Positions 2,743-57,338 of a stretch of DNA of 64,000 nt are shown here, one piece after another. Positions within the stretch are counted from its first letter, which is position 1. Each line of letters opens with the position of its first letter. Below the pieces are notes generated by a model, which saw only the letters and a list, made by a program, of their open reading frames with translations, was not told where the DNA came from and did not search any database. Origin of the DNA: an uncultured Acidimicrobiaceae bacterium (GTDB lineage: Bacteria; Actinomycetota; Acidimicrobiia; Spongiisociales; UBA5794); contig CAZONX010000003.1 of the NCBI GenBank assembly GCA_964581295.1, forward strand, positions 2,406 to 66,405. Reading direction: 5' to 3'. Both the position numbers and the translations under genes were made by a program.

Positions 2743-4988
2743 GCCTGCTCCCTCATTGCTTCCCAGACGCGTTGTGGCGTGAGCGGCAGGTCGCGTATCA
2801 CCAACCCGGTGGCGTCGCGTACCGCGGCGCCGACGGCAGGAGCCGTGCACAGCAGGCTCCCCTCGCTCACACCCTTGACTCCGTACGGACCGGGTCCGTC
2901 GTGGTTCTCGATGCTCTCGCTGATCAACTCGGTCGGTAGGTCCTTGCTGGTAGGAATCCGGTAGTCGATCGCTCCGAGGTTCCTGACGCGGCCTTCCTCA
3001 TCGAGGATGTAGCCCTCCATCAGCGAATGCCCAAGGCCCATGATTGCGGCGCCGTCGTCCTGCCCGTGCACCTGCTGCGGGTTGAGGGCGGTGCCGATAT
3101 CACCGACGGTGACGTGCCGGATAATGGTGATCTCTCCGGTCTCGCCGTCGACCTCCGCCTCGATCGCAGTGCAGTTGAATTCGAAGAATGCTGCCGACCC
3201 GGCGAGCGGATGGCTCGGCACCTTGTCTTTGCGCATCTCACCGTTGCCGATGACTTCGCCGCCGAGCGGAGCGAGCGCCTGCTGCACTACCTCCACGATC
3301 GGCAGGTCTTCGCCTGCGAGACGCACAACGCCGCCGTCAACTTCGATGTCGTCTTCGTCTACGCCGTGGACTCGAGCGGCCATGGCCTTGACCTTGCCGT
3401 GAATGTCCTTGCAGGCGCGGTACACCGAGGTGCCCATGAGCACGGTCGAGCGACTGGCCGATGTCTGCTGGTCGTATGGCACCGTCGCGGTGTCACCCAT
3501 GATCACGTTGACACGTTCGATGGGGATGCCCATCTCCTGTGCAACGATCTGAGCGAACACGGTCCTCGCGCCCTGGCCCATGTCGGACGTCCCACTGAAG
3601 AGGATTGCGCTGCCGTCGTTGAGCAGCCGCACCGTCGAGTAGGACAGTCCGGTCGTCGGCCCCGACTTGAGACCGAGGGCAATGCCCCGGCCGCGACCCT
3701 CCGGAAGCGGCTTGTCCCATCCAATTAGCTCGGCGGCCTTGTCGATTGTCTCGACCCAATTGCCGTCGGCCGGCGTGTCCCCCGGCACGAATTCGTAGCC
3801 CGGCTCCGGCAGATTCCGCTTCCTGATCTCGAGCCGGTCGATCCCCAGCTCGATCGCAGCCTCGTCGAGCGTGGACTCACGCGCCCAGGTGATCTGGGGA
3901 ACACCGAACCCGCGGAACGCGGTCGTGGGCGTGGTGTTCGACAGAATTGTGCGACCCATGATCTTGACGACCGGCACCTTGTAGGGACCGGCCGCGACAT
4001 ACGACGACTTGGCCGCCACTCGATCAGCGATATCGACGTATGCACCGATGAGATAATTGGTCTCGATATCGTTGTAGATCAGCGTGCCGTCGAGCGTCAT
4101 GCCCATCTTCACCCGAACGCGGGTCGACGGGCGACGGACGGCCTGGAACGTCTCTTCGAGCGACATGATCAGACGCACCGGTCGCCCGGTTGCGAGCGCC
4201 ATGTAGCACACGAGCGGTTCGAGCTTCGGGTGCTGTTTGCCGCCGAAGCCCCCGCCGGGGTCCGGAGCGAACACCCGCAACTTCGAGAGCGGGATATCGA
4301 GCAGGCCGGCGAGCGTCTTCTGGAGCTGGAACGGATGCTGAATCGTGCTCCACACGTTGAGTTCGTGACCGTCCGGTTGCGCGATGAACGCGTGCGGCTC
4401 GATTGCGAAGTGCGTGATCATCGGGAATTCGTACTCCCGCTCGATCACGTATTCGGCGTCGCCTTCCACGGCCTCGACGTCGCCCCAACCGAACTTGATC
4501 TCGCTCTTGATGTTGGTGTTAGCGAACGGCTCGCCCTGCCGCAGCGACGGATCCTGAACGAGCGACGCTCCGGGATCGAGGGCAGCATCGATGGAGAAGA
4601 CGGCGGGGAGCACCTCATACTCGATCTCGACGAGGGCGGCAGCCTCTTCGGCGATCTCTTTCGTCTCGGCTGCGACGGCCGCAACCGGTTCACCGTGGTA
4701 GTTCACCGTGTCAACCGCGAGGACCGGGCGGTCCGCGTACTGCGGGCCGAACCGAGGCATCGGCTTCGGCAGGTCGTCCGCCGTCATGATCAGCCGGACC
4801 CCAGGGACTTGCTCAGCCTTCGTGGTGTCGATAGAGATGATGCGCGCACGCGACTCGTCGATCTTGACGAGCTTGGCGTGCAATTCGTCGACGAGATGGA
4901 TGTCTGCGACGTATTGCTGGGCGCCGGTGACACGATCTCTTCCGCCGACACGGTTTGGTGAGGCTCCGACGAGCTCGTTGGCAGTCAT
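2739..4988 (-). CDS. molybdopterin-dependent hydroxylase large subunit (xanthine dehydrogenase / aldehyde oxidase family, CoxL/XdhA-like)
   Basis: 749 aa. Aldehyde-oxidase/XDH a/b-hammerhead plus MoCo-binding domains (GGGFGGK, FRGFGVPQ, …SGTSDMGQGARTVFAQIVAQEMGIP…). Lacks the CODH VAYRCSFR loop. Start at MTANEL (ATG 4988) overlaps the small-subunit stop (ATGA). Confidence 0.9.
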   Translation of the reverse strand: MTANELVGASPNRVGGRDRVTGAQQYVADIHLVDELHAKLVKIDESRARIISIDTTKAEQVPGVRLIMTADDLPKPMPRFGPQYADRPVLAVDTVNYHGEPVAAVAAETKEIAEEAAALVEIEYEVLPAVFSIDAALDPGASLVQDPSLRQGEPFANTNIKSEIKFGWGDVEAVEGDAEYVIEREYEFPMITHFAIEPHAFIAQPDGHELNVWSTIQHPFQLQKTLAGLLDIPLSKLRVFAPDPGGGFGGKQHPKLEPLVCYMALATGRPVRLIMSLEETFQAVRRPSTRVRVKMGMTLDGTLIYNDIETNYLIGAYVDIADRVAAKSSYVAAGPYKVPVVKIMGRTILSNTTPTTAFRGFGVPQITWARESTLDEAAIELGIDRLEIRKRNLPEPGYEFVPGDTPADGNWVETIDKAAELIGWDKPLPEGRGRGIALGLKSGPTTGLSYSTVRLLNDGSAILFSGTSDMGQGARTVFAQIVAQEMGIPIERVNVIMGDTATVPYDQQTSASRSTVLMGTSVYRACKDIHGKVKAMAARVHGVDEDDIEVDGGVVRLAGEDLPIVEVVQQALAPLGGEVIGNGEMRKDKVPSHPLAGSAAFFEFNCTAIEAEVDGETGEITIIRHVTVGDIGTALNPQQVHGQDDGAAIMGLGHSLMEGYILDEEGRVRNLGAIDYRIPTSKDLPTELISESIENHDGPGPYGVKGVSEGSLLCTAPAVGAAVRDATGLVIRDLPLTPQRVWEAMREQA

Positions 4989-5461
4989 TCCTTCCCCACC
5001 TTCGCTGCCGTGAGCACGGCCTCGGTGATCTGGAGATAGCCGGCGCATCGGCAGAGATTCCCACCGAGGGCCTCATGCACGTCGTCGATCGTCGGGTCGG
5101 GATTGCTTTGCAGAAGTGCATGCGCAGACATCAACTGACCCGGGATGCAGAATCCGCACTGCGGCGCACTGAGGTCGAGGAAAGCCTGCTGGAGGGCATT
5201 CAGGTGCCCGTCCGCCGCCAGGCCTTCCACACTCGTCACGTCTCGCCCGTCGATCTCGACGGCGAGCATCAGGCAGGAGTTCATCGGAATGCCATCGACG
5301 ACCACGGTGCACGCACCGCATTCGCCAACGACGCAGCACTCCTTGGTCCCGGTGAGCCCGAGTTGATCGCGCAGAACGTCGAGCAAGGTGTGGTTCGCGG
5401 CGACGTCGAACGCACGATCGCGACCGTTGATGGTTGCTTCGATGTGGACCGTTTCGCTCAT
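4985..5461 (-). CDS. (2Fe-2S)-binding small subunit of Mo-hydroxylase (CoxS/XdhC-like)
   Basis: 158 aa with both [2Fe-2S] cysteine clusters (GTKECCVVGECGACTV… and …CGFCIPGQ…CRCAGY). ATGA overlaps on both sides. Confidence 0.9.
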   Translation of the reverse strand: MSETVHIEATINGRDRAFDVAANHTLLDVLRDQLGLTGTKECCVVGECGACTVVVDGIPMNSCLMLAVEIDGRDVTSVEGLAADGHLNALQQAFLDLSAPQCGFCIPGQLMSAHALLQSNPDPTIDDVHEALGGNLCRCAGYLQITEAVLTAAKVGKE

Positions 5462-6330
5462 GACACTCCTTGCAGTTCTTGCAGGCGCGAAATCGCCCGC
5501 TCCACGGCGCGCGCACCGAGCACCCGCAGCATCGCCCGGCGATAGTCTGGACTCGCGCGCATGGATCGAACCGACGGGCTGGCGTCGGCGAAGATCTCCT
5601 CGAACACCGCAGCCTTGGCGTCGGCAGACGCGTCGGGGTCGGCAAGAACACCGGTGTCGTCCGTTCGCAGCCAGGCACGAGGCCCAACGCTTCCGAAGGC
5701 GACCTGCGTGACGCCCGCATCATCGACCGTGGCTGCAAGCGTGACCGAAGCCAGGTCGGTGCCCTTGCGTCGGGTCATCCTTTCGTACGCGGCGCCGATC
5801 GGGCGCGACGGCACGGTCAATTCGAGGGCGAAACCGATCTCGCCGTCGCGAAGATCGACCGTGCCAGGGCCAACGATGAAGTCGTCGATGGGGACCCTCC
5901 GGAGGCCTTCGGGTCCGGCGGCGATGACGATGGCGTCGTAGGCCAACAGCGGTGGTGCCGTGTCGGCGGCTGGCGATCCGTTGCAGATGTTGCCGAGCAC
6001 CGTGGCTCGATTCCTGATTTGCACCGAACCCACCACCACGGCGGCCTCGACCAGCGCAGGAAAGTGCTGGTTGATCCGCTCATCGACGACGACCTGGGTC
6101 ATGGTGGCCGCAGCGCTGAGCGTCACGGTGTCTCCATCCCAGGCCAACGCCGGATACAACTCGGCGACGCGCTTGAGATCGACCACCACCTTCGGCTGCT
6201 TCCACCGATCCCGCATGGCGATCACCAGATCGGTACCGCCGGCGAGGATCTCGGTCTCCGAGCCGCTTGTAGCGAGCACCTGAAGCGCTTCGTCAAGCGA
6301 CTCAGGACGTTCGTAGGAGAACTCCTTCAT
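5458..6330 (-). CDS. FAD-binding subunit of Mo-hydroxylase (CoxM/XdhB-like, FAD_binding_5 + CO_deh_flav_C)
   Basis: 290 aa, MKEFSYERPESLDEAL…AGGTDLV…RATVLGNICNGSPAADTAPPLLAYDA…. First of the three redox subunits. 21-bp gap to the upstream gene. Confidence 0.85.
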   Translation of the reverse strand: MKEFSYERPESLDEALQVLATSGSETEILAGGTDLVIAMRDRWKQPKVVVDLKRVAELYPALAWDGDTVTLSAAATMTQVVVDERINQHFPALVEAAVVVGSVQIRNRATVLGNICNGSPAADTAPPLLAYDAIVIAAGPEGLRRVPIDDFIVGPGTVDLRDGEIGFALELTVPSRPIGAAYERMTRRKGTDLASVTLAATVDDAGVTQVAFGSVGPRAWLRTDDTGVLADPDASADAKAAVFEEIFADASPSVRSMRASPDYRRAMLRVLGARAVERAISRLQELQGVS

Positions 6331-6351: not shown

Positions 6352-7239
6352 CTAGATGACCTTGTCTGCCTCGTCCATGATTGCCTGCGGGTTCGCTGCA
6401 CGAATCATGTAGAACGAGCGCGGTCCGCAGAAGCTCTCGGTGAAGTCGGCGCGTGACTGACGCAGCGCTTCGGTATCGGTCAGTGGCATCGTGTGCCCAG
6501 GAGCGAGCAACTCGTTCGTGAGGAAGTAGTTCTGGAGCGAATGGAAGTTCTGGAACTGCGCCTCGAACTGACCGAGTTCGGTCGTCGTCGGGTCGAAGTT
6601 GCCGTCGATGGCGGGAACGATCACGACGTCGACGTTGCTCGGCTCGTCGTAGTCCTCCCACGTCGGCATCTCGTCACCGAAGAAGATCTGCGCGCCGCGC
6701 TCGGGAGCAGCCTTGTCGGCCCGCTCGGTTCCCTTGGCACGGCTCTTGATGAAGACCGTCTTGGATCCCATGATCACGGTGCCCGAATCGTCGATGACCG
6801 TGGTCTCGGTCGAGACGAGCTTGCCACCGCGCCGGCACGCCTCGATCTGGCACATGCTCTTGCCATGGTTGGATTCGCCACCGAGGAACAAGACGGTCTT
6901 GCCCTTGTAGCGCACGGCCGATGAATGGAACGGATGCAGGCCCTTGGCCTCCATGCGCAACGCCAGCACGGTCACGATCGCCTTCTGGATCGGACCCTCG
7001 GCCCAGTCGCCGTTGAAGCGCATCGTGGTGCCGTCCCAGGCCACCGACTTCTCTGCCACGTCGCGGTCCCAGACCAGGTCGGGCTCGCTCAGCGTGACGT
7101 CCGACTCCAGCTGCACGGATGCGAGGCGGTAATTCATGAAGTCCATGTTCTGGAGCACGTGCTCGGGAACCTCGACGCCGATGACGTCGATCCGGATCCT
7201 TGCGCCGGCTGCCGACATTTCTTCGGTAAGCGTGGCCAT
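6352..7239 (-). CDS. HPr kinase/phosphorylase C-terminal-domain-like P-loop protein (function unknown), first gene of Mo-hydroxylase operon 1
   Basis: The internal segment GKTVLFLGGESNHGKSMCQIEACRRGGKLVSTETTVID matches the HprK C-domain P-loop pattern (G-x-S-x-x-GKS…L-E-x-x-x-RG-x-x-LV-x-D). Start at MATLTEEM (ATG 7239) with a strong GAAGGAGA RBS. The longer track ORF 6352..7437 has an Arg-rich, implausible N-terminus. Confidence 0.5.
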   Translation of the reverse strand: MATLTEEMSAAGARIRIDVIGVEVPEHVLQNMDFMNYRLASVQLESDVTLSEPDLVWDRDVAEKSVAWDGTTMRFNGDWAEGPIQKAIVTVLALRMEAKGLHPFHSSAVRYKGKTVLFLGGESNHGKSMCQIEACRRGGKLVSTETTVIDDSGTVIMGSKTVFIKSRAKGTERADKAAPERGAQIFFGDEMPTWEDYDEPSNVDVVIVPAIDGNFDPTTTELGQFEAQFQNFHSLQNYFLTNELLAPGHTMPLTDTEALRQSRADFTESFCGPRSFYMIRAANPQAIMDEADKVI

Positions 7240-7369
7240 GGTTGTTTCTCCTTCGTCTGTTGGTCGTTCTTGATTCTGTCGGCGCGTCGAGCCGCGCCCG
7301 ACGCGTTGGCGTTCGTTCACGGGGCTCCGGCGCCTGCCGCCGCTGCGGCCCTCGTGATCTCTGTTGTTG

Positions 7370-8098
7370 CTAGCCCTCGGCAGCCTCCTCGGAGACCGCC
7401 TCCGAAACCGCTTCGGCAAGGCCTTCGCGCACCTCATCGAGCCCTTCGATTAGGAGGGCCGCCTCGGCCGCATGCGTACGGCTCCGTTCGGCGGCAAGCT
7501 CGGGGTCCTGGTCGCGAATCGCGGCGAGGAGTGGTTCGTGTCGGAGCGAAAGCCAGTGCAGGTCCACACCGGGGGTCGACGCTGTGACGTAGGTTCGCGA
7601 GAACGGCTCGAGCATCGACCACTGGCGTGCCAGAGTCTCGTTGTGCGCGGCGGCAACGATCCGCGCGTGGAACTTCGTGTTGTGGATGGCCTGGTCGTGC
7701 GCGTCGCCGCGAGCAGCGGCCTCTTTCATCGCCACATAGAGGGCTTCAAGATCGGCGATGCACTGTTCGGTTCGCCGCTCAGCCGCCAGCCTTCCGGCCA
7801 GCGCCTCGAGCTCGGCGCGCACCTCGATCGCTTCTGTGAGCTCTTGCCTCGTCGGCTTGCGCACTCGCGCACCCTTGTGGGGCTTCATCTCGACGAAGCC
7901 AAGGATTGCGAGGTCCCGCAGTGCTTCGCGCACCGGTGCCTGGCTGACACCGAGGTCGCGAGCCACCCGGGTCTCGACGATGCGAGACCCGGGCTCCAGC
8001 TCTCCTTCGAGAATCCACGTGAGAATGCGGTCCTTCACCCGCTCGGAGAGAACTTCTCTCTCCATGGGTTCCGGTTGCGTCTCTTGTCGATTCGTCAT
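7370..8098 (-). CDS. GntR-family transcriptional regulator (FadR subfamily, FCD C-terminal domain)
   Basis: N-terminal wHTH (…ETRVARDLGVSQAPVREALRDLAILGFVEMKPHKGARV) plus FCD-type helical effector domain. Start could be 8098 (MTNRQ) or 8065 (MEREV). Confidence 0.85.
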   Translation of the reverse strand: MTNRQETQPEPMEREVLSERVKDRILTWILEGELEPGSRIVETRVARDLGVSQAPVREALRDLAILGFVEMKPHKGARVRKPTRQELTEAIEVRAELEALAGRLAAERRTEQCIADLEALYVAMKEAAARGDAHDQAIHNTKFHARIVAAAHNETLARQWSMLEPFSRTYVTASTPGVDLHWLSLRHEPLLAAIRDQDPELAAERSRTHAAEAALLIEGLDEVREGLAEAVSEAVSEEAAEG

Positions 8099-8106
8099 AT
8101 CAGTGT

Positions 8107-8125
8107 TGGGCCCTCGGAGGGCCCA
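8107..8125. promoter_or_regulatory. 19-bp perfect palindrome TGGGCCCTCgGAGGGCCCA between the PpsA-like stop and the GntR start (terminator hairpin and/or operator)
   Basis: Seen directly. 9-bp arms, 9 nt upstream of the GntR ATG at 8098. Confidence 0.45.
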
Positions 8126-8134
8126 CTCCTATCC

Positions 8135-9886
8135 CTAGAGGATCTCGACTACGCCGTTGGTCCCGTCGACCCGCAGGCGGTCGCCAGTCTTGATCTCACG
8201 AGTGGCAACGCCGGTGCCGGTGACGCCGGGAATGCCGAACTCGCGAGCCATGACTGCGGGGTGCGCAACCATGCCGCCGGCATCGCAGACGATGCCGCCG
8301 ATGATGGCGAACAACGGTGTCCACGCCGGGTTCGTCATCTGGCAGACCAGAATGTCGCCGCCCTTGACCTCGTCGAACTCGGCAGGCGAAGAAACGACCT
8401 TCGCCGTGGCTTCGATGACGCCAGGCGACACGCCGATACCTTCGATCCTGCCCTTGGTCTCCGTGTCGAAGTGCAGCTTCTCAGGGAAGCCCCACAGATT
8501 GAGATACGGGAACGCGAGCTGGTCTTCGGTCGCCGTGCCGATGAAGTCCGGCGGGCGGATCTTCTCTTGCTCGGCCCGGGTCGCACGCCGCTCGGCGACA
8601 ATGCTCTTGGCGTCGTAGCCCTCGGGATCACCCATCAAGTAGCGCAGTTCGTTGTAGCGCAAGTAGATCGTGTCGTCCGGCTCGTCCAACGCGCCCATCT
8701 CGACCAGCTTCCGGCCGATGCAGATCAGCACCACCCGAGCGTGCTGGTGCGTGCCCTGGTCGATATAGAAGTGGTGGTCGGGCGTGAGCGGGGCCATCTT
8801 CAGGTTGATCTCATTGGCTGCCTTCAGCGCCTCGAGGGCGTCGCCCTCTTCGATGCCTTCGAGCAACTCAACGGCTGCAGCCTGAATGTCCGTCTCGAGG
8901 TGGGCGACGACCGGCCGGTGGTCATAGTCCGAGTCCAGGTATCCCTTGATCACGTCAAGGACCGGTTCCGGTGTCTCGAATCGCGACGGGTAGATGAACT
9001 CGTGGCTCCACACGGCGTGCCAGCCGAACTCACGCTGGTAGGCCTTCAGGCCCTCGGCGATGAACCGGCGGCCGCGCTCGGTGCCCTCGAGAGCCGCCAA
9101 GATGTCGGCGCCGTTCTCGTTGACGAAGGCCGCCATGAGGACGTCGTCTTCCTTGATCTCGTCCTTCAGCGCCACCAGCAACTCGATCGCGTCCCAGTTG
9201 CGGTCGGCGTAGGAGTTCTGCAATCGGCCGAGGATTTCCTCGTGCTTCTGGGTGATCTCGCCGCCGAGCGCCTCTTCGAGCGTTGCTCGCAGCGCCAGGG
9301 TCGACGACAGCTGGGCGAAGTTGAGCATCCAGTGGATCTTCCAGTGACGATCGAGCATGTCGATCGCGTCCTCGAGGATCACGGCCCACTCCATGAGCGA
9401 GATGTTCTCGTAGTCGTCAATCTTCTCTTCGAGATAGGCGAGGTTTCCCGCCATTTCGGGCACGAGGCGATCCCTCCACCAATCGGGGAAGTTCGCTCCG
9501 TAGACCGGGAGCACGGCGCCGAGATAGGCGCCGATCTTCTCGGCGTAGTCCGGGTCGGCGTCCGTGGGCACCCGGGAGTCGTAGTGGAACCCGAGTTGTT
9601 CGCTGGGCACGGCCATATCCGGGTCCGGCGGGATCGCGGCCGTGAAGAGGTATCCGTTGACGACCTTGCCGACCCAGTCGGTCGCGAACGGCGTGCCGAA
9701 GCGACGGAACATGTGGTCGCACGTGAGCACCCAGTTGCCGATATCGTTGTACATCGGCGAGACGGGGCGCGGGCAGTGCAGGTCGTCGTAGACCCAGAAC
9801 AGCTTCTTTTCCTTCTCCGATTCCCACTCGACCGGGAAGCTCTCGTCTCCGAAGAACTCCGCCACAACCTTGCTGGTATCTACCAT
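8135..9886 (-). CDS. PEP-utilizing-enzyme mobile (phosphohistidine swivel) domain protein with large unknown N-terminal domain; PpsA (phenylphosphate synthase) / rifampin-phosphotransferase-like architecture
   Basis: The C-terminal ~90 aa is the PEP-utilizers phosphohistidine domain (…GGMVAHPAVMAREFGIPGVTGTGVATREIKTGDRLRVDGTNGVVEIL). The N-terminal ~490 aa matches nothing I recognise. No ATP-grasp domain in this protein. Start at MVDTSKVV (ATG 9886) with an AGGAAGGAGA RBS. The track's GTG 9913 is less likely. Confidence 0.7.
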   Translation of the reverse strand: MVDTSKVVAEFFGDESFPVEWESEKEKKLFWVYDDLHCPRPVSPMYNDIGNWVLTCDHMFRRFGTPFATDWVGKVVNGYLFTAAIPPDPDMAVPSEQLGFHYDSRVPTDADPDYAEKIGAYLGAVLPVYGANFPDWWRDRLVPEMAGNLAYLEEKIDDYENISLMEWAVILEDAIDMLDRHWKIHWMLNFAQLSSTLALRATLEEALGGEITQKHEEILGRLQNSYADRNWDAIELLVALKDEIKEDDVLMAAFVNENGADILAALEGTERGRRFIAEGLKAYQREFGWHAVWSHEFIYPSRFETPEPVLDVIKGYLDSDYDHRPVVAHLETDIQAAAVELLEGIEEGDALEALKAANEINLKMAPLTPDHHFYIDQGTHQHARVVLICIGRKLVEMGALDEPDDTIYLRYNELRYLMGDPEGYDAKSIVAERRATRAEQEKIRPPDFIGTATEDQLAFPYLNLWGFPEKLHFDTETKGRIEGIGVSPGVIEATAKVVSSPAEFDEVKGGDILVCQMTNPAWTPLFAIIGGIVCDAGGMVAHPAVMAREFGIPGVTGTGVATREIKTGDRLRVDGTNGVVEIL

Positions 9887-10233
9887 TCGGCAAATCTCCT
9901 TCCTCAACGCCACAGCGCCGGGACCGTCCCTTGCGTGGAACGACCTGATTCCGGCACCCTTTCTCGTCCGTCAGTCCTTCGTCGTGTCGTCCTACTCCTC
10001 TCCCGAGGCCGGTCGAACCGGCCCGGTGCGAACCACACAATGTGTGCATCGCACACGAGCCTTCAGTGCTTGCGGCGCAACGAAGATGGAGCAAGCTGCG
10101 GTCATGCTCTCAACCCCGGGACCGCGGGAAGATCGTTCGTGTCAAGGGGTGAATACGGTGTGGACACCGGCGCAATCGTACGAGATATCAGCATTTCGTT
10201 GACATCCAATGGCATCGGCACGGCGTATCCTCG

Positions 10234-10245
10234 ATAATCGATTAC
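10234..10245. promoter_or_regulatory. palindromic motif ATAATCGATTAc (site 1 of 3), ~350 nt upstream of the PpsA-like gene
   Basis: Extended match ATCCTCGATAATCGATTA is shared with site 3. Confidence 0.55.
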
Positions 10246-10298
10246 CCGCAGTTTACGAGTGCCGTCCCGTGTCCGTCAACTTTGCGAACGGTGTCGGA

Positions 10299-12605
10299 TC
10301 AGGTCGAGGGTTTCTCACCCGGCGGTAGGTCGGCCAATGCAGCAAGAACCTTCTCCGGGGTGACCGGCAGATCCCGAATACGAACGCCGATCGCGTCATA
10401 GAGCGCATTGGCGATCGCAGGCGGCGTCGCCGCGGCAGCCGGCTCTCCGACACCCTTGGCACCGAACGGGGCCTCCTCATGCACCGACTCGACGATGATC
10501 GGCACGATTTCCGGGAGATCCTGGATCGTCGCCACCTTGTAGTCGGCGAGGTTGCCGTTCTCGATGCGTCCGTCGCGAATAGAGAAGTGCTCGAGGATCC
10601 CATTTGAGAGGCCCATCACCACACCGCCCTCGATCTGCTGCTCGACCGTCATCGGATTGATGGCCTTGCCGACGTCGGCAGCCGCGGCCACCTTGACCAC
10701 GCTGATCACGCCGGTCTCGATGTCGACCTCGATCTCTGCGGCCTGGGTGCACAGCATCCAGAAGATGCTGCTCATCCACTCCTCACCGGGGTCGGCCTTG
10801 AGCAACGGCGACCGAGCTGACGAGAACCGCGATCCGGCCGTCATCGAGTAGCCCTCCCCCGCGAACTTCGCGAGCAGATCCCCAAGGGTGATCTTGACTT
10901 CATCGTCCAGGTCGTAGATGGAGCCGTTGCGAAGATCCAGGTCCTCCGCATCGACCTCGAGTACCTCGGCGGCCAGGCCCAGGATCTCCTCGCGGATCTC
11001 CGCGCCGGCAGCGACGATGGCGTTGCCCATGTGATAGGTGGTCCGACTCGAAGCGACCGGGCCGTTGTATGGCGTGAGCGCGGTGTCGGTGGCTGGCACC
11101 GACACGTGCTCGAGCGGGACACCAATCGCGTCCGCGGCCATCTGGGCGAGGACGGTGTCCTGCCCTGCGCCGATCTCCGGCGCCGCGCAGATCACCAGCA
11201 CACGACCGTCTTGTTCCATGTTGATCACGACGTTCGAACTCGACGGCGTCATCGTCGGCTTGATCATCGTGGCGATGCCCTTGCCGCGGCGCAGGTGCGG
11301 CGCCGGTTCGCGCTCGACCGATCCCCAGCCGATTTCGGCAGCCGTTCGTTCGATGGTCTCGGTGAGGCCGACGCTGTGCATGATCTGGCCGTTGAGGTAG
11401 GAATCGCCTTCCACGTATCCGTTCTTCAGTCGGATTTCGACCGGATCGAGATTCAGCTGCGCGGCGATCTCGTCCATCTGCGTCTCACACGCCCACGTCA
11501 CTTGGGTCGTGCCGTAACCGCGGTAGGAACCGGTGATCGCCTTGTTGGTGTAGACCTGCCGCGACAGGATTTCGATATTGGGGATGCGATACGGCCCGAC
11601 GATCGTCTGCGAGCCGCGGATGGCGACGCCGACGGTGTAGGCCGTGTAAGCCCCGCTGTCCCAGAGCACTTCGGCGCTCCTGGCGATCATCAGGCCGTCG
11701 CTGTTCACCCCGGTCTTCAGCTTCATGATCGCCGGCACGCGAAGCTGCGAGGCGATGAGGCACTCCTCGCGGGTGAACTCGACGCGGACCGGACGACCGC
11801 CGGAATTGCGCGCCAGGACGACCGCGATGGCCTCGGCGATTGGGACACCCTTGCCACCGAACGACCCACCGACCTGCGCAACGATCAGCCGGACCTGGGT
11901 GCTGGAGACGCCCAACCCTTCTGCGAGCTCGTTGCGGAGCAGGAATGGGCGATCGGTCGATACCCACAGGGTGTAGCCACCCGAACCCGCGTCGTACTCG
12001 GCGATCGCGGTGTGGACCTCGAGTGCGACATGGCTGATCGCGTGCGCCGAGTACTCCCCTTCGACCACCAGATCGGCGGCGGCGAAACCTTCCTCGACAT
12101 CGCCGCGCGAATACCGATAGAGCGTGTTGATATTGGTGTGGGGCACGATCTCATGCCCACCACGCTTGTAGGTGTGGAGATCAGGATGCACGAGTGGCGC
12201 GTCGGGATCGAGGGCGGCGCGCATGTCGACGATCGCCGGCAACTCCTCGTAGTCCACCGCAATGAGGTCGAGCGCCTCCTGTGCCTGCGCCTCGGTGGTC
12301 GCCGCGACCGCAACGACCGGTTCGCCGACATAGCGGACGCGGTCGATCGCGAGAAACGGTTGATCCTTGATCGCAGATCCGAACAACAGCGGGAAGTCGT
12401 TTCCCGTGACGACTGCCTCCACTCCCGGAGCCGACCGGGCGCGCGCTACGTCGATCGACACGATCCTGGCGTGTGGGTGTGGGCTTCGTAGAACCGCGCC
12501 GTGCAACATGCCAGGCATGGACAGGTCGACGGCGTAGACCGCGCTGCCTGTCACCTTGTCGACTGAGTCAACGCGTGGTGCCCGCGTGCCTACATACGTC
12601 GTCAT
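10299..12605 (-). CDS. molybdopterin-dependent hydroxylase large subunit, paralog 2 (XDH/aldehyde oxidase family)
   Basis: 768 aa, same domain architecture as 2739..4988 (…VVGGSFGGKG…, YRGYGTTQ, …AAPEIGAGQDTVLAQMAADAIGVP…). Start at MTTYVGT overlapping the stop of the 2Fe-2S gene (ATGA). Confidence 0.9.
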   Translation of the reverse strand: MTTYVGTRAPRVDSVDKVTGSAVYAVDLSMPGMLHGAVLRSPHPHARIVSIDVARARSAPGVEAVVTGNDFPLLFGSAIKDQPFLAIDRVRYVGEPVVAVAATTEAQAQEALDLIAVDYEELPAIVDMRAALDPDAPLVHPDLHTYKRGGHEIVPHTNINTLYRYSRGDVEEGFAAADLVVEGEYSAHAISHVALEVHTAIAEYDAGSGGYTLWVSTDRPFLLRNELAEGLGVSSTQVRLIVAQVGGSFGGKGVPIAEAIAVVLARNSGGRPVRVEFTREECLIASQLRVPAIMKLKTGVNSDGLMIARSAEVLWDSGAYTAYTVGVAIRGSQTIVGPYRIPNIEILSRQVYTNKAITGSYRGYGTTQVTWACETQMDEIAAQLNLDPVEIRLKNGYVEGDSYLNGQIMHSVGLTETIERTAAEIGWGSVEREPAPHLRRGKGIATMIKPTMTPSSSNVVINMEQDGRVLVICAAPEIGAGQDTVLAQMAADAIGVPLEHVSVPATDTALTPYNGPVASSRTTYHMGNAIVAAGAEIREEILGLAAEVLEVDAEDLDLRNGSIYDLDDEVKITLGDLLAKFAGEGYSMTAGSRFSSARSPLLKADPGEEWMSSIFWMLCTQAAEIEVDIETGVISVVKVAAAADVGKAINPMTVEQQIEGGVVMGLSNGILEHFSIRDGRIENGNLADYKVATIQDLPEIVPIIVESVHEEAPFGAKGVGEPAAAATPPAIANALYDAIGVRIRDLPVTPEKVLAALADLPPGEKPST

Positions 12606-13069
12606 CTGCGGACTCCTTTGATCTCTGCGACCGCTTCGAGGATCTTGGGATAGGCGCCGCATCGGCAGAGGATGCCGCTGAGCGCCTTCTTCACGTCCTC
12701 GATCTCCGGTTCATCGTCCCTTCTGAACATAGCAGTGGCTGTCAAGACCATGGCAGGGGTGCAGAACCCGCATTGGAACGCCCCGGTGTCGATGAATGCC
12801 TGCTGCACGTCGTTGAGTTCGCCGTCCTCGGCGAGGCCCTCCACGGTCTCGATGCTGGCACCGTCCGCGTCGCCGGCCAACACCAGGCACGAGGTGACCG
12901 GTTCACCGTCCGCGAGCACCACGCAGGTGCCGCACTCGCCGACTCCGCAGCCTTCCTTCGTCCCGGTGAGGAACACCTGCTCGCGTAGGACCTCGAGAAG
13001 AGTGAGGCGCGGATCGGTCGTGAGTTGGCGGGAAACTCCGTTCACCGTGACGTCGATAGTGATCGTCAT
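12602..13069 (-). CDS. (2Fe-2S)-binding small subunit, paralog 2
   Basis: MTITIDVTVNGV… with GTKEGCGVGECGTCVV and CGFCTPAM…CRCGAY cysteine clusters. True start at M82 of the track ORF (ATG 13069), ATGA-overlapping the FAD-subunit stop. Confidence 0.9.
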   Translation of the reverse strand: MTITIDVTVNGVSRQLTTDPRLTLLEVLREQVFLTGTKEGCGVGECGTCVVLADGEPVTSCLVLAGDADGASIETVEGLAEDGELNDVQQAFIDTGAFQCGFCTPAMVLTATAMFRRDDEPEIEDVKKALSGILCRCGAYPKILEAVAEIKGVRR

Positions 13070-13956
13070 GCCGCCACCTCCACACCCGCGGATTGCACGG
13101 CGGCACGAAGGGCCCGCAACGTGAGCACCCTCGCAAGCGTCGTGCGATACGACGCGCTGGCGCGCATGTCGCCGATCGGCTTCGCCTCGCCGGCGGCGGA
13201 CTGGGCGACAGCGGCGAGTGCCGCCTCCACTGGAATCTCCGAGCGAAGCAGCGCTTCGCTGGCAACCGCGCGAAATGGGGTCGGCCCGAGCGAGGCAAGG
13301 GCGATCATGCATTCGAGGACGCGGCCGTCGACGCCGAGAACCACACTCGCCGATACCCCTGCAAGAGCGATGTCGGTCCCGCTCCCCCGCTTGCCCAGCT
13401 TCACGTGCGCCGAGCCGAAACCCGCAGGCGGATCGGGGAGGAAGATCGACGTGATGATGTCGGACGACGCAAGCGTCGTCGCTCCCGGGCCCGAGTACAG
13501 ATCCTCCACCAAATCATCGCGAGCGCCGTCACGCCCCTCGATGGTGGCGACCGCCCGATGGACGATCAGCGCCGGTCCGAGATCGGATGCCGGCGACGCG
13601 CGACCCACATTGCCGCCGATCGTCGCCAGCGCCCGCACCGGCGGCGACGCAAGGATGGACGCGGCCTGAGCGAGTCCGGGGCAGCTCTCCTGCACGAGCG
13701 ATGACTGCTCGACGAGGGTCACCTTGGTCAGGGCTCCGATACGGATGCCTCCCTCGGCCGCTTCGATTCCGGTGAGGCCTGGCACGCGTTTGAGGTTCAC
13801 AACCGTCGACGGACGCATCCGGCCCGTCTTCATGTCGACGATGAGATCGGTCCCGCCGGCGAGCACGCGGGCGTCGTCCGGAGCGTCGGCGAGAACGTCG
13901 ATCGCTTCAGCCAGCGACGTCGGTTCGTGGTAGTCGAATGCGCGAAGTCGCTTCAC
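13066..13956 (-). CDS. FAD-binding subunit of Mo-hydroxylase, paralog 2 (CoxM-like)
   Basis: 296 aa, MKRLRAFDYHEPTSLAEAIDVLA…AGGTDLIVDMK…ATIGGNVGRASPASDLGPALIV…. Confidence 0.85.
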   Translation of the reverse strand: MKRLRAFDYHEPTSLAEAIDVLADAPDDARVLAGGTDLIVDMKTGRMRPSTVVNLKRVPGLTGIEAAEGGIRIGALTKVTLVEQSSLVQESCPGLAQAASILASPPVRALATIGGNVGRASPASDLGPALIVHRAVATIEGRDGARDDLVEDLYSGPGATTLASSDIITSIFLPDPPAGFGSAHVKLGKRGSGTDIALAGVSASVVLGVDGRVLECMIALASLGPTPFRAVASEALLRSEIPVEAALAAVAQSAAGEAKPIGDMRASASYRTTLARVLTLRALRAAVQSAGVEVAA

Positions 13957-13978
13957 CGATCATCCTTCGTGTTGGTGG

Positions 13979-14368
13979 TCATCCGGTCTGATGCAGCAGT
14001 TCGAGCGTAACGCCGTCTGGTGTCTCGACGAAGGCGATCTCATAGCCGCCGGGTCCCGGGCGTCGCTCGTAGATCTTGAGACCCTGCTCAGCGAAGCGCT
14101 CGAGGTCGGCGTCGAGATCGTCCGTCTCGATCCCGACGTGTTCGAGCCCGAGGTAGGGGATCGGCGGCGGGTCGTTGATGGTGTCGTCTTCGCCGGGCGC
14201 CGGCGTGGTGATGTTGAGACGGACGCCGTCGAACTCGACAGGAACGAAGAGCATCGTCTTGAACTGAATCTCGGGGAGCAACGTGCCCCCGAACATGTCG
14301 ATCCACCATGCCGCGCTGGCGCGGGGATCTCTCGATTTGATGTGGATGTGGTGGAGGACGTGTGCCAT
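13979..14368 (-). CDS. VOC-family (glyoxalase/bleomycin-resistance/dioxygenase fold) protein
   Basis: ~130 aa from MAHVLHHIHIKSRD…GLEHVGIETDDLDADLERFAEQGLKI…. The upstream part of track ORF 13979..14521 is Arg/Pro-rich and unlikely to be coding. First gene of Mo-hydroxylase operon 2. Confidence 0.65.
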   Translation of the reverse strand: MAHVLHHIHIKSRDPRASAAWWIDMFGGTLLPEIQFKTMLFVPVEFDGVRLNITTPAPGEDDTINDPPPIPYLGLEHVGIETDDLDADLERFAEQGLKIYERRPGPGGYEIAFVETPDGVTLELLHQTG

Positions 14369-14549
14369 GGCTCTCCTTGTCTTCGGTCGTTCCCCGCGTA
14401 CGATCGCGAGTCGACGACCCCGCTGCGGACGATCGGTTTCGGTCGCCGACGTTAGCCAGCCGGGCGCGCCCGGCCGAAAGGGGTCTGCCGAAGATCGGCT
14501 CATCACCGTCGCCGACGGCATGAATTGACGGACGGCAATTCTATTTCAT

Positions 14550-14561
14550 ATAATCGATTAT
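14550..14561. promoter_or_regulatory. perfect palindrome ATAATCGATTAT (site 2 of 3) in the divergent VOC-Mo-hydroxylase / Liv-ABC intergenic region, overlapping a TATAAT -10 hexamer
   Basis: TTGACG(14525-14530)-N18-TATAAT(14549-14554) on the plus strand. The palindrome begins inside the -10. Confidence 0.6.
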
Positions 14562-14727
14562 CAATGAAAGATTATTCCGTCGCAAGCATCGCGACACGCC
14601 GGGCGGACGATGCTGCACCTTCGTGTTCATGCCGTCGCATACACGGCATCGGTTCCGGCGTGGTATCTAGCGTGATTCAGCCGCTGGAGCCAACGGCTCC
14701 ACGTGGACGAGAAGAGGCCAGGGGCTG

Positions 14728-15600
14728 ATGGACATCATCTCCGACTCAATCGTTATTGGCCTGACGGAGCAGGCGCCCCTCATCCTCGCCGCCATGGGCT
14801 TCGCACTCCTCTACCGACTCACGGGCCTCATCAACGTGGCGTACTCGGAGACGATCACGCTCGGCGCCTACATGGGGATGTGGATCAACACCACGTTCGA
14901 GCTCAACTTCTACACCATCCTGATCCCGACCGGGATTGCCGCAGGGCTGATCAGCGTCGCCACCTACTTCGCGGTCTTCCGTCCGGCCAAGCTTCGCAAC
15001 GTCGGCGCCCTCGAAATGATCATCATCTCGTTCGGGCTGTCCGTGTTCCTCCGTCACGGCCTGCAGTTCATCTTCGGCTATCCGGTTCGGTTCTTCGATG
15101 TCCCGGCCCCGGACACGATCTTCGTACTGGGCGTCGGCGTGTCATCTTTCCGCCTCGTCGCCGTCGCCAGCGTCTTCATCCTCGCCTTCGGGCTCTACTG
15201 GTTCATCCAGAAGACGAGCTACGGGCTTCAGATCCGGGCCCTGGCGAGCGATGAGGATCTGGCGCAGGTCAGCGGAATCCGGCCAATGGCCGTGACCGTT
15301 CTCATTTGGTTCCTCGCCGGTGTCGCCGGTGGCCTCGCCGGTGCCTTCTACGGCGTCGGCTCTTCGGTCGCCCCGCTGCTCGGATGGCGCCAGTTCCTGT
15401 TCATCCTGCTGGTCGTCCTGGTCGGCGGGGCCAAGAACATCGGCGGCGTCATCATCGCCGGCGCGGTGACCGCCATCTCACTGACGTTCATGACGCTCCA
15501 GTTCGGCCAGGCGCTGTACGGCCAGATGATCCTCATCGTTGTGTTTGTCATCATCTTGAAGGTCCGCGGCACACGGTCGGCCGAAGCGGGGAAGGTGTAG
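14728..15600 (+). CDS. branched-chain-amino-acid-type ABC transporter permease (LivH-like)
   Basis: 290 aa polytopic membrane protein with typical LivH/BPD_transp_2 sequence. Follows a TTGACG-N18-TATAAT promoter-like element. Confidence 0.85.
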   Translation: MDIISDSIVIGLTEQAPLILAAMGFALLYRLTGLINVAYSETITLGAYMGMWINTTFELNFYTILIPTGIAAGLISVATYFAVFRPAKLRNVGALEMIIISFGLSVFLRHGLQFIFGYPVRFFDVPAPDTIFVLGVGVSSFRLVAVASVFILAFGLYWFIQKTSYGLQIRALASDEDLAQVSGIRPMAVTVLIWFLAGVAGGLAGAFYGVGSSVAPLLGWRQFLFILLVVLVGGAKNIGGVIIAGAVTAISLTFMTLQFGQALYGQMILIVVFVIILKVRGTRSAEAGKV

Positions 15601-15604
15601 CGCC

Positions 15605-16555
15605 ATGAATCTGGACTGGCTCGACGCATTCCTCGTCTACGGACTCTTCTCAGTCGTCATGGTGATCGGCCTGGCGCTGCTGCTTCACCTGCAACTCGGG
15701 CTCGCCCGCATCGCCAACTTCGGCATCGTGGGCTTCTGGGGCCTCGGGATGTACTCATTCGGCGTTCTGTTCGTCAAGGTCGATTGGCCGTTCGGAGAGA
15801 TCTGGGCGTTCCTGATCTCGATTGCCTTCGCGACACTCGTTGCCGGACTCGCCGGACTCGCCGTTGGATGGGTGATTGCCGACCTCGATATCGACGGTGT
15901 GCTGGTCGGCACGCTCGGCTTCGCTACGTGCGTAGCTCTCTTTGCGACGGCCGAACAGGACCTGACCGGCGGAGCCCTCGGTATGGGCGGACTCGGATTC
16001 CCCTACGACATTGGCAGCGTCAAGGCGAACGAGACGTTGTGGCTGGTCATCTTGACTGTCGTCGTTGGCTTGATCCTCTACTACGTGTCTCGCGTCCACA
16101 GGTCGCCATACGGTCGGTTGCTCATCGCGATCGGAGACAACGAGCCGCTGGCCCGCAGCCTCGGCAAGCAGTCGTTCCGGACGAAGCTGTGGTTGTTCGC
16201 AGGAAGCTCGGCGGTCATGGGTCTCCTTGGGGCGATGTTCGGCGTGATGGAGCGTTTCCTCGACATCGGCAACCTCGGCATCGACATCACCCTGGCAGTC
16301 ATGGTGGGGTTGGTGCTCGGTGGCGTCACCCGAACCTGGGGAGCCGTCGTCGGCGTCGTACTCACCGTGGCCGTATTCGACATTCTCCTTCAGTCCTACC
16401 TGCCGCTCCCCCAGTCGTGGTACGGCCAGGCAATCCCGAACCTTCGGGAGATGACGTTCGGCGCCGCACTCATTCTGGTGCTCATGTTCCGACCGTACGG
16501 CGTGCTCGGCCAGATGCGAAGAGACAAGCTGATGCGGAGGTTGCATGGTGGGTGA
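15605..16555 (+). CDS. branched-chain-amino-acid-type ABC transporter permease (LivM-like)
   Basis: 316 aa polytopic permease. 4-bp gap from the previous permease. Confidence 0.85.
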   Translation: MNLDWLDAFLVYGLFSVVMVIGLALLLHLQLGLARIANFGIVGFWGLGMYSFGVLFVKVDWPFGEIWAFLISIAFATLVAGLAGLAVGWVIADLDIDGVLVGTLGFATCVALFATAEQDLTGGALGMGGLGFPYDIGSVKANETLWLVILTVVVGLILYYVSRVHRSPYGRLLIAIGDNEPLARSLGKQSFRTKLWLFAGSSAVMGLLGAMFGVMERFLDIGNLGIDITLAVMVGLVLGGVTRTWGAVVGVVLTVAVFDILLQSYLPLPQSWYGQAIPNLREMTFGAALILVLMFRPYGVLGQMRRDKLMRRLHGG

Positions 16556-18057: not shown

Positions 18058-18103
18058 TCGCTGTACGGCGATCCGAATGGAGGAAGAGAAAGGGAAGGGA
18101 CGA

Positions 18104-19655: not shown

Positions 19656-19697
19656 TCGTACGGAGTCTTCAGGACACCCGTCTGGCTTCGATCCTCG

Positions 19698-19709
19698 ATA
19701 ATCGATTAT
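19698..19709. promoter_or_regulatory. perfect palindrome ATAATCGATTAT (site 3 of 3) upstream of the AhpD-like-PTP-PPDK-like-UPF0261 operon, overlapping a TATACT -10-like hexamer
   Basis: Context gATCCTCGATAATCGATTATACTgc, 75 nt upstream of the AhpD-like start codon. Confidence 0.6.
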
Positions 19710-19782
19710 ACTGCATCTGTCTCGCCCGTCCCGGGACGGATTCGCATTTGTCGAGTCCACAGCAACACACGGAGGACCACCC

Positions 19783-51441: not shown

Positions 51442-51477
51442 CCCAGGGAAGCATCACCCAACGGAGCCACACGAACC

Positions 51478-56413: not shown

Positions 56414-56415
56414 CG

Positions 56416-57324: not shown

Positions 57325-57338
57325 GTTGTTCTCCCTTG

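Follow-up and report, generated by a model that had tools for sequence, protein, structure and literature searches.

A conserved gene island joining a predicted two-component dikinase, molybdenum hydroxylases and a PEPCK/HprK-fold protein in an uncultured Acidimicrobiaceae bacterium

Catabolic routes in which two-component dikinases phosphorylate the substrate at the outset are a recent discovery (Cre, Hpe/Acv, MarK; 2016-2025). Known routes of this sort start at a phenolic OH, go on to change the side chain of the phosphorylated compound, and take the phosphate off at the end. The named phenolic dikinases are PpsAB from Thauera, CreHI from Corynebacterium glutamicum (4-cresol), HpeHI from Rhodococcus rhodochrous GD02 and AcvAB from Sphingobium SYK-6. 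In the Cre pathway, the P450, the alcohol dehydrogenase (ADH) and the aldehyde dehydrogenase (ALDH) act on the phosphate ester. HpeH pairs with the ATP-grasp protein HpeI in a phenolic dikinase of two components, a relative of PpsAB and CreHI; HpeH, which comprises a domain like that of rifampin phosphotransferase (RPH) and a His-swivel domain, transfers phosphate to phenols, and the characterised ATP-binding partners of phenolic dikinases are grasp-only proteins similar to phosphoenolpyruvate (PEP) synthase (PMC12167813). The Hpe carboxylase takes the phosphorylated substrate only, and HpeD then dephosphorylates the product (PMC9618137). A further aromatic kinase, MarK, belongs to UPF0261, and UPF0261 co-occurs with a two-component dikinase in about 25% of the genomes with aromatic kinases (PMC12624787). 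The enzymes partnered with such dikinases so far are a P450, a biotin carboxylase or UbiD. Here we describe an island that represents a molybdenum/tungsten (Mo/W) pterin version of this arrangement, widespread and tightly conserved, in a stretch of 64,000 nucleotides (the window) from an uncultured Acidimicrobiaceae bacterium (contig CAZONX010000003.1).

As in the Pps, Cre, Hpe and Acv systems, the swivel protein of the island has an RPH-like helical domain, related to the rifampin (RIF)-binding domain, followed by a C-terminal His-swivel; the probable ATP-grasp partner is a separate protein, and the catabolic cluster includes a regulator and a dehydrogenase, joined in this genome by a phosphatase. 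The downstream enzymes differ, being a Mo-hydroxylase of the xanthine dehydrogenase (XDH) family, a cyclase-family hydrolase and a Zn-dependent ADH (Zn-ADH) here, as against a UbiD carboxylase in Pps, a P450 and ALDH in Cre, and a biotin carboxylase in Hpe and Acv. The ATP-grasp protein differs as well: it is of the pyruvate phosphate dikinase (PPDK) type, 712 amino acids long, and carries its own swivel domain and a C-terminal domain that matches no Pfam or NCBIfam family, unlike its Pps, Cre, Hpe and Acv counterparts; grasp-only partners of the PpsB/CreI/HpeI type are of about 35-40 kDa. Moreover, a protein with the fold shared by PEP carboxykinase (PEPCK) and HPr kinase/phosphorylase (HprK/P), hereafter the P-loop protein, is a near-constant member of the island; from the Pps, Cre, Hpe and Acv clusters none is known to us. 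The tabulated Hpe genes include none (PMC9618137). Literature searches for this gene combination found no description of it. The families of the dikinase and UPF0261 components have recently been characterised, and the island adds new members to them; what is new is their coupling to Mo/W pterin enzymes, the constant and unannotated family of small PEPCK/HprK-fold proteins, and a conserved putative operator.

Judged by its sequence and its structural model, the 583-residue swivel protein is the predicted substrate-binding and His-swivel half of a small-molecule dikinase of the RPH/HpeH/CreH/PpsA type. In our Pfam scan its sole match is the PEP-utilizers swivel domain PF00391 in the C-terminal ~70 residues (residues ~508-578, E 1e-21), with no match to PF02896, the PEP/pyruvate barrel, and PF27448 (Rph_4th) is present in the precomputed annotation of its homologues. 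Against NCBIfam, residues 200-583 align with the C-terminal parts of RPH, PigC/RedH and 'PRK08296' hypotheticals, all below cutoff, and a phmmer search of the PDB matches residues 384-583 with residues 681-866 of the Listeria enzyme, RPH-Lm (E 2.5e-26). The catalytic-His motif GGMVAH542, aligned with GGLMTH of RPH-Lm, lies within ~50 residues of the C-terminus, and H542 is invariant in 27 homologues. The AlphaFold2 model has a pLDDT of 65 overall with a mostly good helical core (residues 130-440, block means ~57-95), and in a Foldseek search with this model six RPH-Lm structures are the only significant matches (E 1e-11, ~475 columns, TMq ~0.5, 22-24% identity), covering both the RIF-binding and the swivel domains. 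Because RPH-Lm is the only significant match, we read the N-terminal domain as a small-molecule-binding domain of the RPH type and not as a PEP/pyruvate TIM barrel. Thus the likeness to PpsA and to the RIF-binding and His parts of RPH, proposed in an earlier note on this DNA, is upheld, and Foldseek found no known PEP/pyruvate-binding fold that would make the protein a diverged PEP synthase. RPH-Lm itself (5fbs, 5fbt, 5fbu, 5hv1) is a single chain of 860 amino acids with a fused ATP-grasp domain and serves antibiotic resistance, whereas in the island the ATP-grasp is encoded separately and the context is catabolic.

The arrangement in which this gene is found is conserved far beyond chance. 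A pattern search of 185,579 GTDB species genomes for relatives of the P-loop protein returned 481 stretches, of which the best 80 were fetched, together with look-ups of contigs bearing homologues. These best 80, all of them from metagenome-assembled genomes (MAGs), belong to Acidimicrobiia, Chloroflexota (including Limnocylindria), Dormibacterota and Methylomirabilota. In 40 related loci where the P-loop gene is flanked on either side by 8 kb or more (full loci), CoxS and CoxL lie downstream of the P-loop gene in every case (40/40), the P-loop gene is immediately upstream of coxM in 39, the swivel gene precedes the P-loop gene in 38, and a GntR regulator gene stands between the two in 35; the cyclase is found in 29 full loci, the Zn-ADH in 28, the full-length 712-residue protein in at least 23, and UPF0261 in 14, where it lies upstream of the swivel gene. 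Synteny of the core order swivel–GntR–P-loop–CoxM–CoxS–CoxL(–cyclase–ADH) extends over Acidimicrobiia and Chloroflexota and, in part, to Dormibacterota and Methylomirabilota. The core of the cluster pointed out in the earlier note is therefore syntenic in relatives, and comparative genomics lends strong support to its suggestion of a phosphorylation step tied to the Mo-hydroxylase. Both of the paralogous Mo-hydroxylase operons that it described are present in the window; their joint layout is not conserved, however, and since CoxMSL2 with VOC is confined to the six nearest relatives (L010, L011, L013, L014, L017, L018), the two-operon layout is lineage-specific. The lineages that carry the island (Acidimicrobiia, Limnocylindria and other Chloroflexota, Dormibacterota) abound in soil and water but are largely uncultured.

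The ATP-binding partner of the dikinase is probably the 712-residue protein, whose sequence matches PF01326 (PPDK_N) and PF00391, the latter with a swivel motif of its own, GGLASH. It scores 494.5 bits with NF004531 (truncated PPDK, PRK05878), above the cutoff of 456, and aligns with residues 7-540 only of PPDK (1ggo, E 1e-118), so that no PEP/pyruvate TIM barrel is included. Its C-terminal 221 amino acids match no Pfam or NCBIfam family and fall outside every PDB match of the full-length protein. This segment (residues 492-712, 22730-23395 on the plus strand) is full-length in relatives, at 53-66% identity, and gave a weak, non-significant winged-helix hint (SelB-wing, E 0.037). The window contains no other ATP-grasp gene, nor any grasp-only gene. 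The gene lies 11 kb from the swivel gene and bears the putative operator described below; in many relatives it is adjacent to the cluster, often straight after CoxL or straight before the swivel gene, so the earlier statement that no ATP-grasp domain is encoded nearby does not hold. The closest plasmid homologue (50% identity over residues 4-466) is on pROB02 of Rhodococcus opacus B4, where a locus (L095, 114073-133572) holds the truncated PPDK with a P450, ferredoxin, ferredoxin reductase, ALDH, Zn-ADH and an FCD regulator, as well as a PEP-utilizing enzyme and a 'phosphotransferase'. This cluster resembles one of the Cre type (4-alkylphenol), with an ATP-binding component that also carries a swivel domain.

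Directly around this gene are two further candidates for phosphate chemistry. The UPF0261 protein has both its N- and C-terminal domains (PF06792, E 5e-61; PF23189, E 3e-85), scores 530 bits with NF002674 against a cutoff of 335, and among solved structures matches Tm-1 (E 1e-79) and 9mpy, a 'UPF0261 domain-containing protein' (E 7e-62). It thus has the domain make-up of the MarK/Tm-1 family and clusters with a predicted two-component dikinase; the acvCDEF/hpeCBAD carboxylase genes are absent here. Directly upstream of the PPDK-like gene is a Y_phosphatase3 gene, which is common only to the close relative L017.

The distant gene groups are joined to the core by a shared palindrome. The core TAATCGATTA occurs in three exact copies in the window, as against 0.29 expected, all of them intergenic (Table 1), and in 52 exact copies, as against 0.2 expected, in 88 related loci (1.43 Mb), where most stand just upstream of swivel, UPF0261, PPDK-like, Liv or VOC genes, and about 27 bp upstream of the PPDK-like gene. 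The palindrome spans Acidimicrobiia and Chloroflexota, and its extended consensus is an 18-bp palindrome, TCGrTAATCGATTATCGA. It is probably the operator of the GntR/FCD regulator of the cluster, which would join the distant kinase genes, the transporter and CoxMSL2 with the core as one probable GntR regulon, predicted to extend over ~0.8-25.7 kb of the window. The first copy, in the 412-bp spacer between the swivel gene and CoxL2, is adjoined by a promoter-like site (10279-10250), and with both lying upstream of the swivel gene, operon 1 is probably not opened by the P-loop gene, contrary to the earlier note. The Liv-type ABC importer, an operator-bearing and recurrent neighbour in relatives, probably takes up the pathway substrate.

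Both Mo enzymes are assigned, by sequence, to the XDH/aldehyde-oxidase family of hydroxylases, with subunits for flavin adenine dinucleotide (FAD), two [2Fe-2S] clusters and the molybdenum cofactor (MoCo). Each CoxMSL set comprises FAD_binding_5 and CO_deh_flav_C, Fer2 and Fer2_2, and Ald_Xan_dh_C with MoCoBD_1 and MoCoBD_2 (E 1e-8 to 1e-72), and the active-site loops are TAFRGFGVPQ in CoxL1 and GSYRGYGTTQ in CoxL2, which share 35% identity. The CO dehydrogenase loop AYRCSFR is absent from both, in agreement with the earlier reading; form-I CO dehydrogenase is rejected on this ground and by TIGR02416 scores of 256-283 bits against a cutoff of 991. Some of the 'coxL' genes that often serve as CO-oxidation markers in metagenome surveys may therefore belong to a phospho-dependent pathway for organic substrates. 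The best solved relative of both large subunits, clearly ahead, is the alpha subunit of 4-hydroxybenzoyl-CoA reductase (1rm6; 346 and 392 bits), with quinoline oxidoreductase, 6-hydroxypseudooxynicotine dehydrogenase and nicotinate dehydrogenase among the next-best. An actual 4-hydroxybenzoyl-CoA reductase was considered and rejected, with TIGR03194 scores of 463 and 560 bits against a cutoff of 994 and the Fe-S loop missing. An extra [4Fe-4S] loop is the hallmark of HcrB; CoxM1 and CoxM2 contain only 1 and 2 Cys, respectively, and so lack it. The HcrABC system serves phenol catabolism, as does PpsAB, and the present cluster has no CoA ligase.

The P-loop protein belongs to a new, tight family for which Pfam has no model. 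Alignment with 28 homologues places its start at MATLTEE and not at the upstream ATG at 7437, which would give an open reading frame (ORF) of 361 amino acids. Mean column identity is 79% among 29 family members, in which K86, H105, E145 and R263 are conserved; the Walker A motif GGESNHGKS (G121-S128) and the RGGKLV stretch, both pointed out earlier, are present and invariant. It has 2872 homologues, the close ones all unnamed and free of Pfam domains, and ~160 clusters at 50% identity, mostly fragments, match it among 1.84 billion cluster representatives; in this exhaustive representative search the family does not grade into annotated families. Pfam and NCBIfam scans of the protein gave no match at E<=0.01. 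Its scores with PF01293 (ATP-PEPCK; 14 bits, cutoff 26.5) and PF07475 (Hpr_kinase_C; 11.8 bits, cutoff 33.3, E 0.18) are below threshold, and the weakest full-length relatives (~30-40% identity over the matched stretch) reach 20-35 bits with Hpr_kinase_C, sub-threshold or borderline. Three database proteins in which the P-loop sequence looks fused to FCD, FAD_binding_5 or CoxS/CoxL domains (P0362, P0247, P0356) were rejected as true fusions: their domain order mirrors the GntR–P-loop–CoxM gene order, so merged gene calls or frameshifts are more likely.

The AlphaFold2 model of the protein (pLDDT 86.5, pTM 0.85; loop 165-178 is conserved in sequence and of low model confidence) gave clearer matches. 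In Foldseek searches of the PDB, ATP-PEPCK structures are the top 35 matches (E 5e-8 to 2e-5, TMq 0.41-0.51), followed by HprK/P (1ko7, 1knx; E ~1e-4), and the ATP-PEPCK match spans more of the chain. Profile searches against the PDB gave T. thermophilus PEPCK at E 0.007, L. casei HprK at E 0.06 and E. coli PEPCK at E 0.4. Residues 68-131 align without gaps with E. coli PEPCK 195-258, so that K86, H105, K127 and S128 fall on PEPCK residues 213, 232, 254 and 255, of which we take the first two to be Mn ligands and the last two the P-loop Lys/Thr. The active-site metal ligands of PEPCK are presumably Lys213, His232 and Asp269 (E. coli numbering); the equivalent of Asp269 is unaligned in the P-loop protein, with E145 as a candidate. 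In motif terms, GDWAEGPIQK...FHSSAV...GGESNHGKS corresponds to GTxYxGExKK...MHxSAN...GLSGTGKT of ATP-PEPCK (1aq2, 1j3b). Compared with ATP-PEPCK (~530-540 amino acids), the P-loop protein, at 295, lacks the greater part of the oxaloacetate-binding domain at the N-terminus; it reads S-T-E-T-T where ATP-PEPCK has its DD motif behind the P-loop, and no carboxylation context is evident. Beyond the P-loop the sequence follows HprK: the segment MCQIEACRRGGKLVSTE aligns with it (RGGKLVSTE vs RGHRLIADD), and in the L. casei alignment E145 falls on the second Asp of the HprK motif. The P-loop core with the following helix and strand (H105...GGESNHGKSMCQIEACRRGGKLVSTE) is shared with HprK/P (1jb1, 1ko7, 1knx), which differs in that the N-terminal half of the P-loop protein is PEPCK-like and the first Asp of its ADD motif is Thr here. 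We conclude that this is a half-size protein predicted to have the PEPCK/HprK fold, below both family thresholds and, in its model, nearer to ATP-PEPCK than to HprK/P. The HprK likeness claimed earlier thus holds at the level of the fold superfamily, although not as the closest match. The retained PEPCK-specific Lys segment (K86, corresponding to K213), which HprK lacks, favours a small molecule as its substrate.

Because the island holds the same logical parts as the Cre and Hpe systems (dikinase, UPF0261 protein, ADH, pterin enzyme, hydrolases, phosphatase, FCD regulator and transporter), the reading that we tentatively favour is a Cre/Hpe-like catabolic pathway that phosphorylates, oxidises and dephosphorylates its substrate, with the P-loop protein as a small-molecule phosphotransferase. 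We infer all of its biochemical steps, including the substrate class, their order, and the direction and substrate of the P-loop protein. The compound, a hydroxylated small molecule that would most likely be phenolic or enolic, would enter through the Liv-type ABC importer. The PPDK-like protein would bind ATP and pass the phosphoryl group to His542 of the swivel protein, whose helical N-terminal domain would bind the substrate and phosphorylate its hydroxyl, as in PpsAB, CreHI and HpeHI, with AMP and Pi as the expected products; the MarK-type UPF0261 kinase may provide a second, ADP-forming route. The Zn-ADH could then convert an alcohol of the phospho-intermediate to the aldehyde, and CoxMSL1 the aldehyde to the acid, or insert a hydroxyl, with CoxMSL2 as a possible lineage accessory, and the cyclase-family hydrolase may open or deacylate the product. 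For the removal of phosphate the candidates are, in this genome, the PTP-like phosphatase and/or the P-loop protein, the latter acting as a phosphotransferase between the phospho-intermediate and ADP/ATP. A bolder version, which we consider improbable, is that the P-loop protein is a new type of small-molecule phosphotransferase that moves the phosphoryl group of an aryl- or enol-phosphate to ADP, or links the loss of phosphate with a carboxylation in the way that PEPCK acts on PEP; it and the dikinase would then sustain an energy-saving 'phosphate protecting-group' cycle round a Mo/W-pterin reaction in many uncultured Acidimicrobiia, Chloroflexota and Thermoproteota.

Several observations weigh against the proposed pathway. 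The 712-residue partner is of the PPDK type with its own swivel, unlike the grasp-only partners of phenolic dikinases, and it might therefore be an enzyme in its own right. Conservation of the PTP-like phosphatase does not reach beyond the closest relatives. The large subunits of the Mo enzymes are nearest to 4-hydroxybenzoyl-CoA reductase and not to known aldehyde oxidoreductases, and in sequence the P-loop protein resembles PEPCK and HprK only weakly (E 0.007-0.1). In unrelated lineages, genes of sugar type are recurrent neighbours of the island (split transketolase, TAL/FSA, GAPDH-like, PGK, G6PD, E1 alpha/beta with ALDH, SDR, MBL/SGL), and genes of aromatic type (MIase, MR_MLE, FAH) are present as well, so that 'phenolic' is not established. 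Finally, a variant island of a cultured organism, on the megaplasmid of Thermomicrobium roseum DSM 5159 (NC_011961.1, 45303-74952; L094), combines dikinase and Mo-hydroxylase genes and yielded no P-loop homologue, which suggests that the P-loop protein is not needed in every version of the pathway and leaves its role unconstrained.

In T. roseum, VOC and SDR genes are divergent from the row Liv ABC–UPF0261–PEP_hydrolase–GntR–cyclase–grasp-only–hypothetical–CoxM–FAH–ABM–swivel–CoxL–CoxS. The swivel protein is 47% identical to that of the window, and the VOC/Liv intergenic region contains a near-copy of the palindrome; this variant and the conserved 18-bp putative operator make the question experimentally approachable. 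The 205-aa hypothetical between the grasp-only gene and coxM, which stands where the P-loop gene would be, was considered as a relative of the P-loop protein and rejected (hhalign probability 0.2%); it has a weak DUF4202 match. A search of 72,556 plasmids found no P-loop homologue.

More distant relatives of the P-loop protein (35-45% identity to the window protein), including those of Nitrososphaerales and Bathyarchaeia MAGs, retain the association in loci that are rearranged. Grasp-only genes are adjacent in L007, L064, L090-L093 and T. roseum, and in archaeal and other distant loci an HpeI-like grasp-only gene is directly beside the P-loop gene. In L007 the order is CoxM–CoxS–swivel–CoxL, followed by SCP2, the P-loop gene and a grasp-only gene, with a second CoxMSL set; L090 has grasp-only … swivel–GntR–cyclase–P-loop–CoxMSL, and L092 has grasp-only–P-loop–CoxMSL with UPF0261 and PEP_hydrolase close by. 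In L091 (1589-5848) and L093 (11104-20568), genes of the tungsten AOR (W-AOR) family beside P-loop, grasp and swivel genes replace CoxMSL, and in L093 a DMSO-reductase-family enzyme directly follows the P-loop gene as well. The presence of W-AOR in the position of CoxMSL suggests aldehyde/acid oxidoreduction as the shared activity. The archaeal locus L089, with a 261-aa P-loop homologue, has no dikinase nearby and no pterin enzyme within 10 kb.

Four other explanations were weighed. It is unlikely, in our estimate, that the P-loop protein is a protein kinase/phosphorylase like HprK/P or PDRP that regulates the swivel proteins or the Mo enzyme on Ser/Thr. A precedent for the regulation of swivel enzymes by P-loop proteins exists in PDRP/PpsR, the HprK/P structural match is significant (E 1e-4), the segment after the P-loop aligns with HprK, and the protein always co-occurs with His-swivel or ATP-grasp proteins. 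These points are countered by the better structural match to ATP-PEPCK, with more of the chain covered, and by the conserved PEPCK-specific Lys segment. Furthermore, the regulatory Thr of PPDK and PEP synthase (GGxTSH) is absent from both GGLASH of the 712-residue protein and GGMVAH of the swivel protein, and no HPr or phosphotransferase system (PTS) gene was found among the scanned ORFs, which cover the window in part, or among the called genes of the related loci.

An equally doubtful explanation, which concerns the substrate, is a pathway resembling the non-phosphorylative Entner-Doudoroff type that oxidises a sugar, a polyol or a triose, in which the Mo/W enzyme would act on glyceraldehyde or an aliphatic hydroxy-aldehyde, and the dikinase and the PEPCK-like protein would phosphorylate a hydroxy- or keto-acid into lower glycolysis. 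Mo and W enzymes both oxidise glyceraldehyde in archaea. The recurrent sugar-type neighbours, among them also LarA, lactonase-like SGL/MBL and a sugar ABC, would fit, as would the C-domain of the Zn-ADH (PF16912, archaeal glucose dehydrogenase; best scores with IolM and Tdh), the scores with the NCBIfam glyceraldehyde dehydrogenase alpha model (358-411 bits, sub-cutoff) and a PEPCK-like fold, which suits C3/C4 acid chemistry. However, most of the central-metabolism neighbours lie outside the operator-marked operons and may merely adjoin the island, and no KDG aldolase or sugar-acid dehydratase is consistently present in the related loci. Moreover, the characterised RPH-type substrate domains act on phenols, rifampin and pyrrole aldehydes, not on sugars (PMC12167813), and UPF0261 has a single characterised enzyme, an aromatic kinase (PMC12624787).

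Somewhat less credible still is the version of the earlier note, a pathway for N-heterocycles (nicotinate, picolinate, quinoline or purine-like compounds), in which the Mo-hydroxylases would make lactams or hydroxy-heterocycles, the kinase would activate the new oxygen and the cyclase-family amidohydrolase would open the ring. XDH-family enzymes with FRGFG/YRGYG loops commonly hydroxylate N-heterocycles, the quinoline, 6-hydroxypseudooxynicotine and nicotinate enzymes are among the next-best solved relatives, this genome has two Mo enzymes, and PF04199 presumably includes kynurenine formamidase and isatin hydrolase. Yet some lineages have W-AOR, which is not known for heterocycle hydroxylation, where CoxMSL would stand, the cluster has no conserved ring-cleavage dioxygenase, monooxygenase or deaminase, the cyclase is missing from about a quarter of the full loci, and the known relatives of the dikinase act on phenols. 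That the phosphotransfer proteins instead serve the pterin enzymes, in cofactor handling, activation or repair, is very improbable: the P-loop gene does adjoin three unrelated Mo/W-pterin families (XDH, AOR and DMSO-reductase types) and nearly always directly precedes coxM, but the family is narrow while pterin enzymes occur very widely, the same Mo enzyme and dikinase exist in T. roseum without the P-loop protein, the RPH-type domain binds small molecules, and one archaeal homologue has no pterin enzyme close by.

The genes were called from six-frame ORFs, GC3-based frame choice and Pfam/NCBIfam scans (Table 1). All the genes named in the earlier note are present, in the minus-strand order that it gave, and its domain calls are correct. 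The genes from CoxM1 through the cyclase overlap at their start and stop codons, a sign of translational coupling within one operon.

Table 1. Positions of the island genes and palindrome copies in the window.
Feature	Position	Strand	Basis or remark
Zn-ADH	795-1841	minus	Pfam/NCBIfam
Cyclase-family (PF04199) metal hydrolase	1852-2745	minus	Pfam/NCBIfam
CoxL1	2739-4988	minus	Pfam
CoxS1	4985-5461	minus	Pfam
CoxM1	5458-6330	minus	Pfam
P-loop protein ('PCKl'), 295 aa	6352-7239	minus	alignment with homologues, AlphaFold2, Foldseek
GntR/FCD regulator	7370-8098	minus	PF00392 + PF07729
PEP-utilizers (swivel) protein, 583 aa from ATG	8135-9886	minus	PF00391 at C-terminus
Palindrome copy 1	10231-10248 (core 10235-10244)		412-bp gap upstream of swivel gene
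CoxL2	10299-12608	minus	Pfam
CoxS2	12602-13069	minus	Pfam
CoxM2	13066-13956	minus	Pfam
VOC	13979-14371	minus	Pfam
Palindrome copy 2	14547-14564 (core 14551-14560)		between divergent VOC-CoxMSL2 and Liv ABC; overlaps TATAAT box
Liv-type ABC importer: 2 permeases, 2 ATPases, Peripla_BP_6 binding protein (18008-19585)	14728-19585	plus	Pfam
Palindrome copy 3	19695-19712 (core 19699-19708)		upstream of CMD-phosphatase-PPDK-like-UPF0261 row
CMD/AhpD-like protein	19783-20400	plus	domain scans
Y_phosphatase3 (PF13350) Cys-type PTP-like phosphatase	~20420-21193	plus	E 3.5e-59
Truncated PPDK-like protein, 712 aa, ATP-grasp + His-swivel	21257-23395	plus	PF01326 + PF00391
UPF0261 (Tm-1/MarK-type) ATP-binding protein, 412 aa	23437-24675	plus	PF06792 + PF23189

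The hairpin reported between the swivel gene and GntR is present. An 8-bp perfect GC stem, GGGCCCUC/GAGGGCCC, with a 3-nt loop (8103-8124, minus strand) lies in the 36-nt spacer, but a canonical terminator is ruled out by the absence of a T-run, and the z-score of the 56-nt fold is only -1.5; the stem could be an element of mRNA processing or stability. An Rfam scan of the window gave no match.

Elsewhere in the window, zwf, a 1007-aa tal-pgi fusion and tkt are encoded at 54965-63154, ~50 kb from the island. Unrelated to the island are an alkyl sulfatase with MBL and Alkyl_sulf domains (46356-48299, minus strand), and a GDE protein of the glycogen-debranching type together with a GH63/MGH1-like protein (49483-54141, plus strand).

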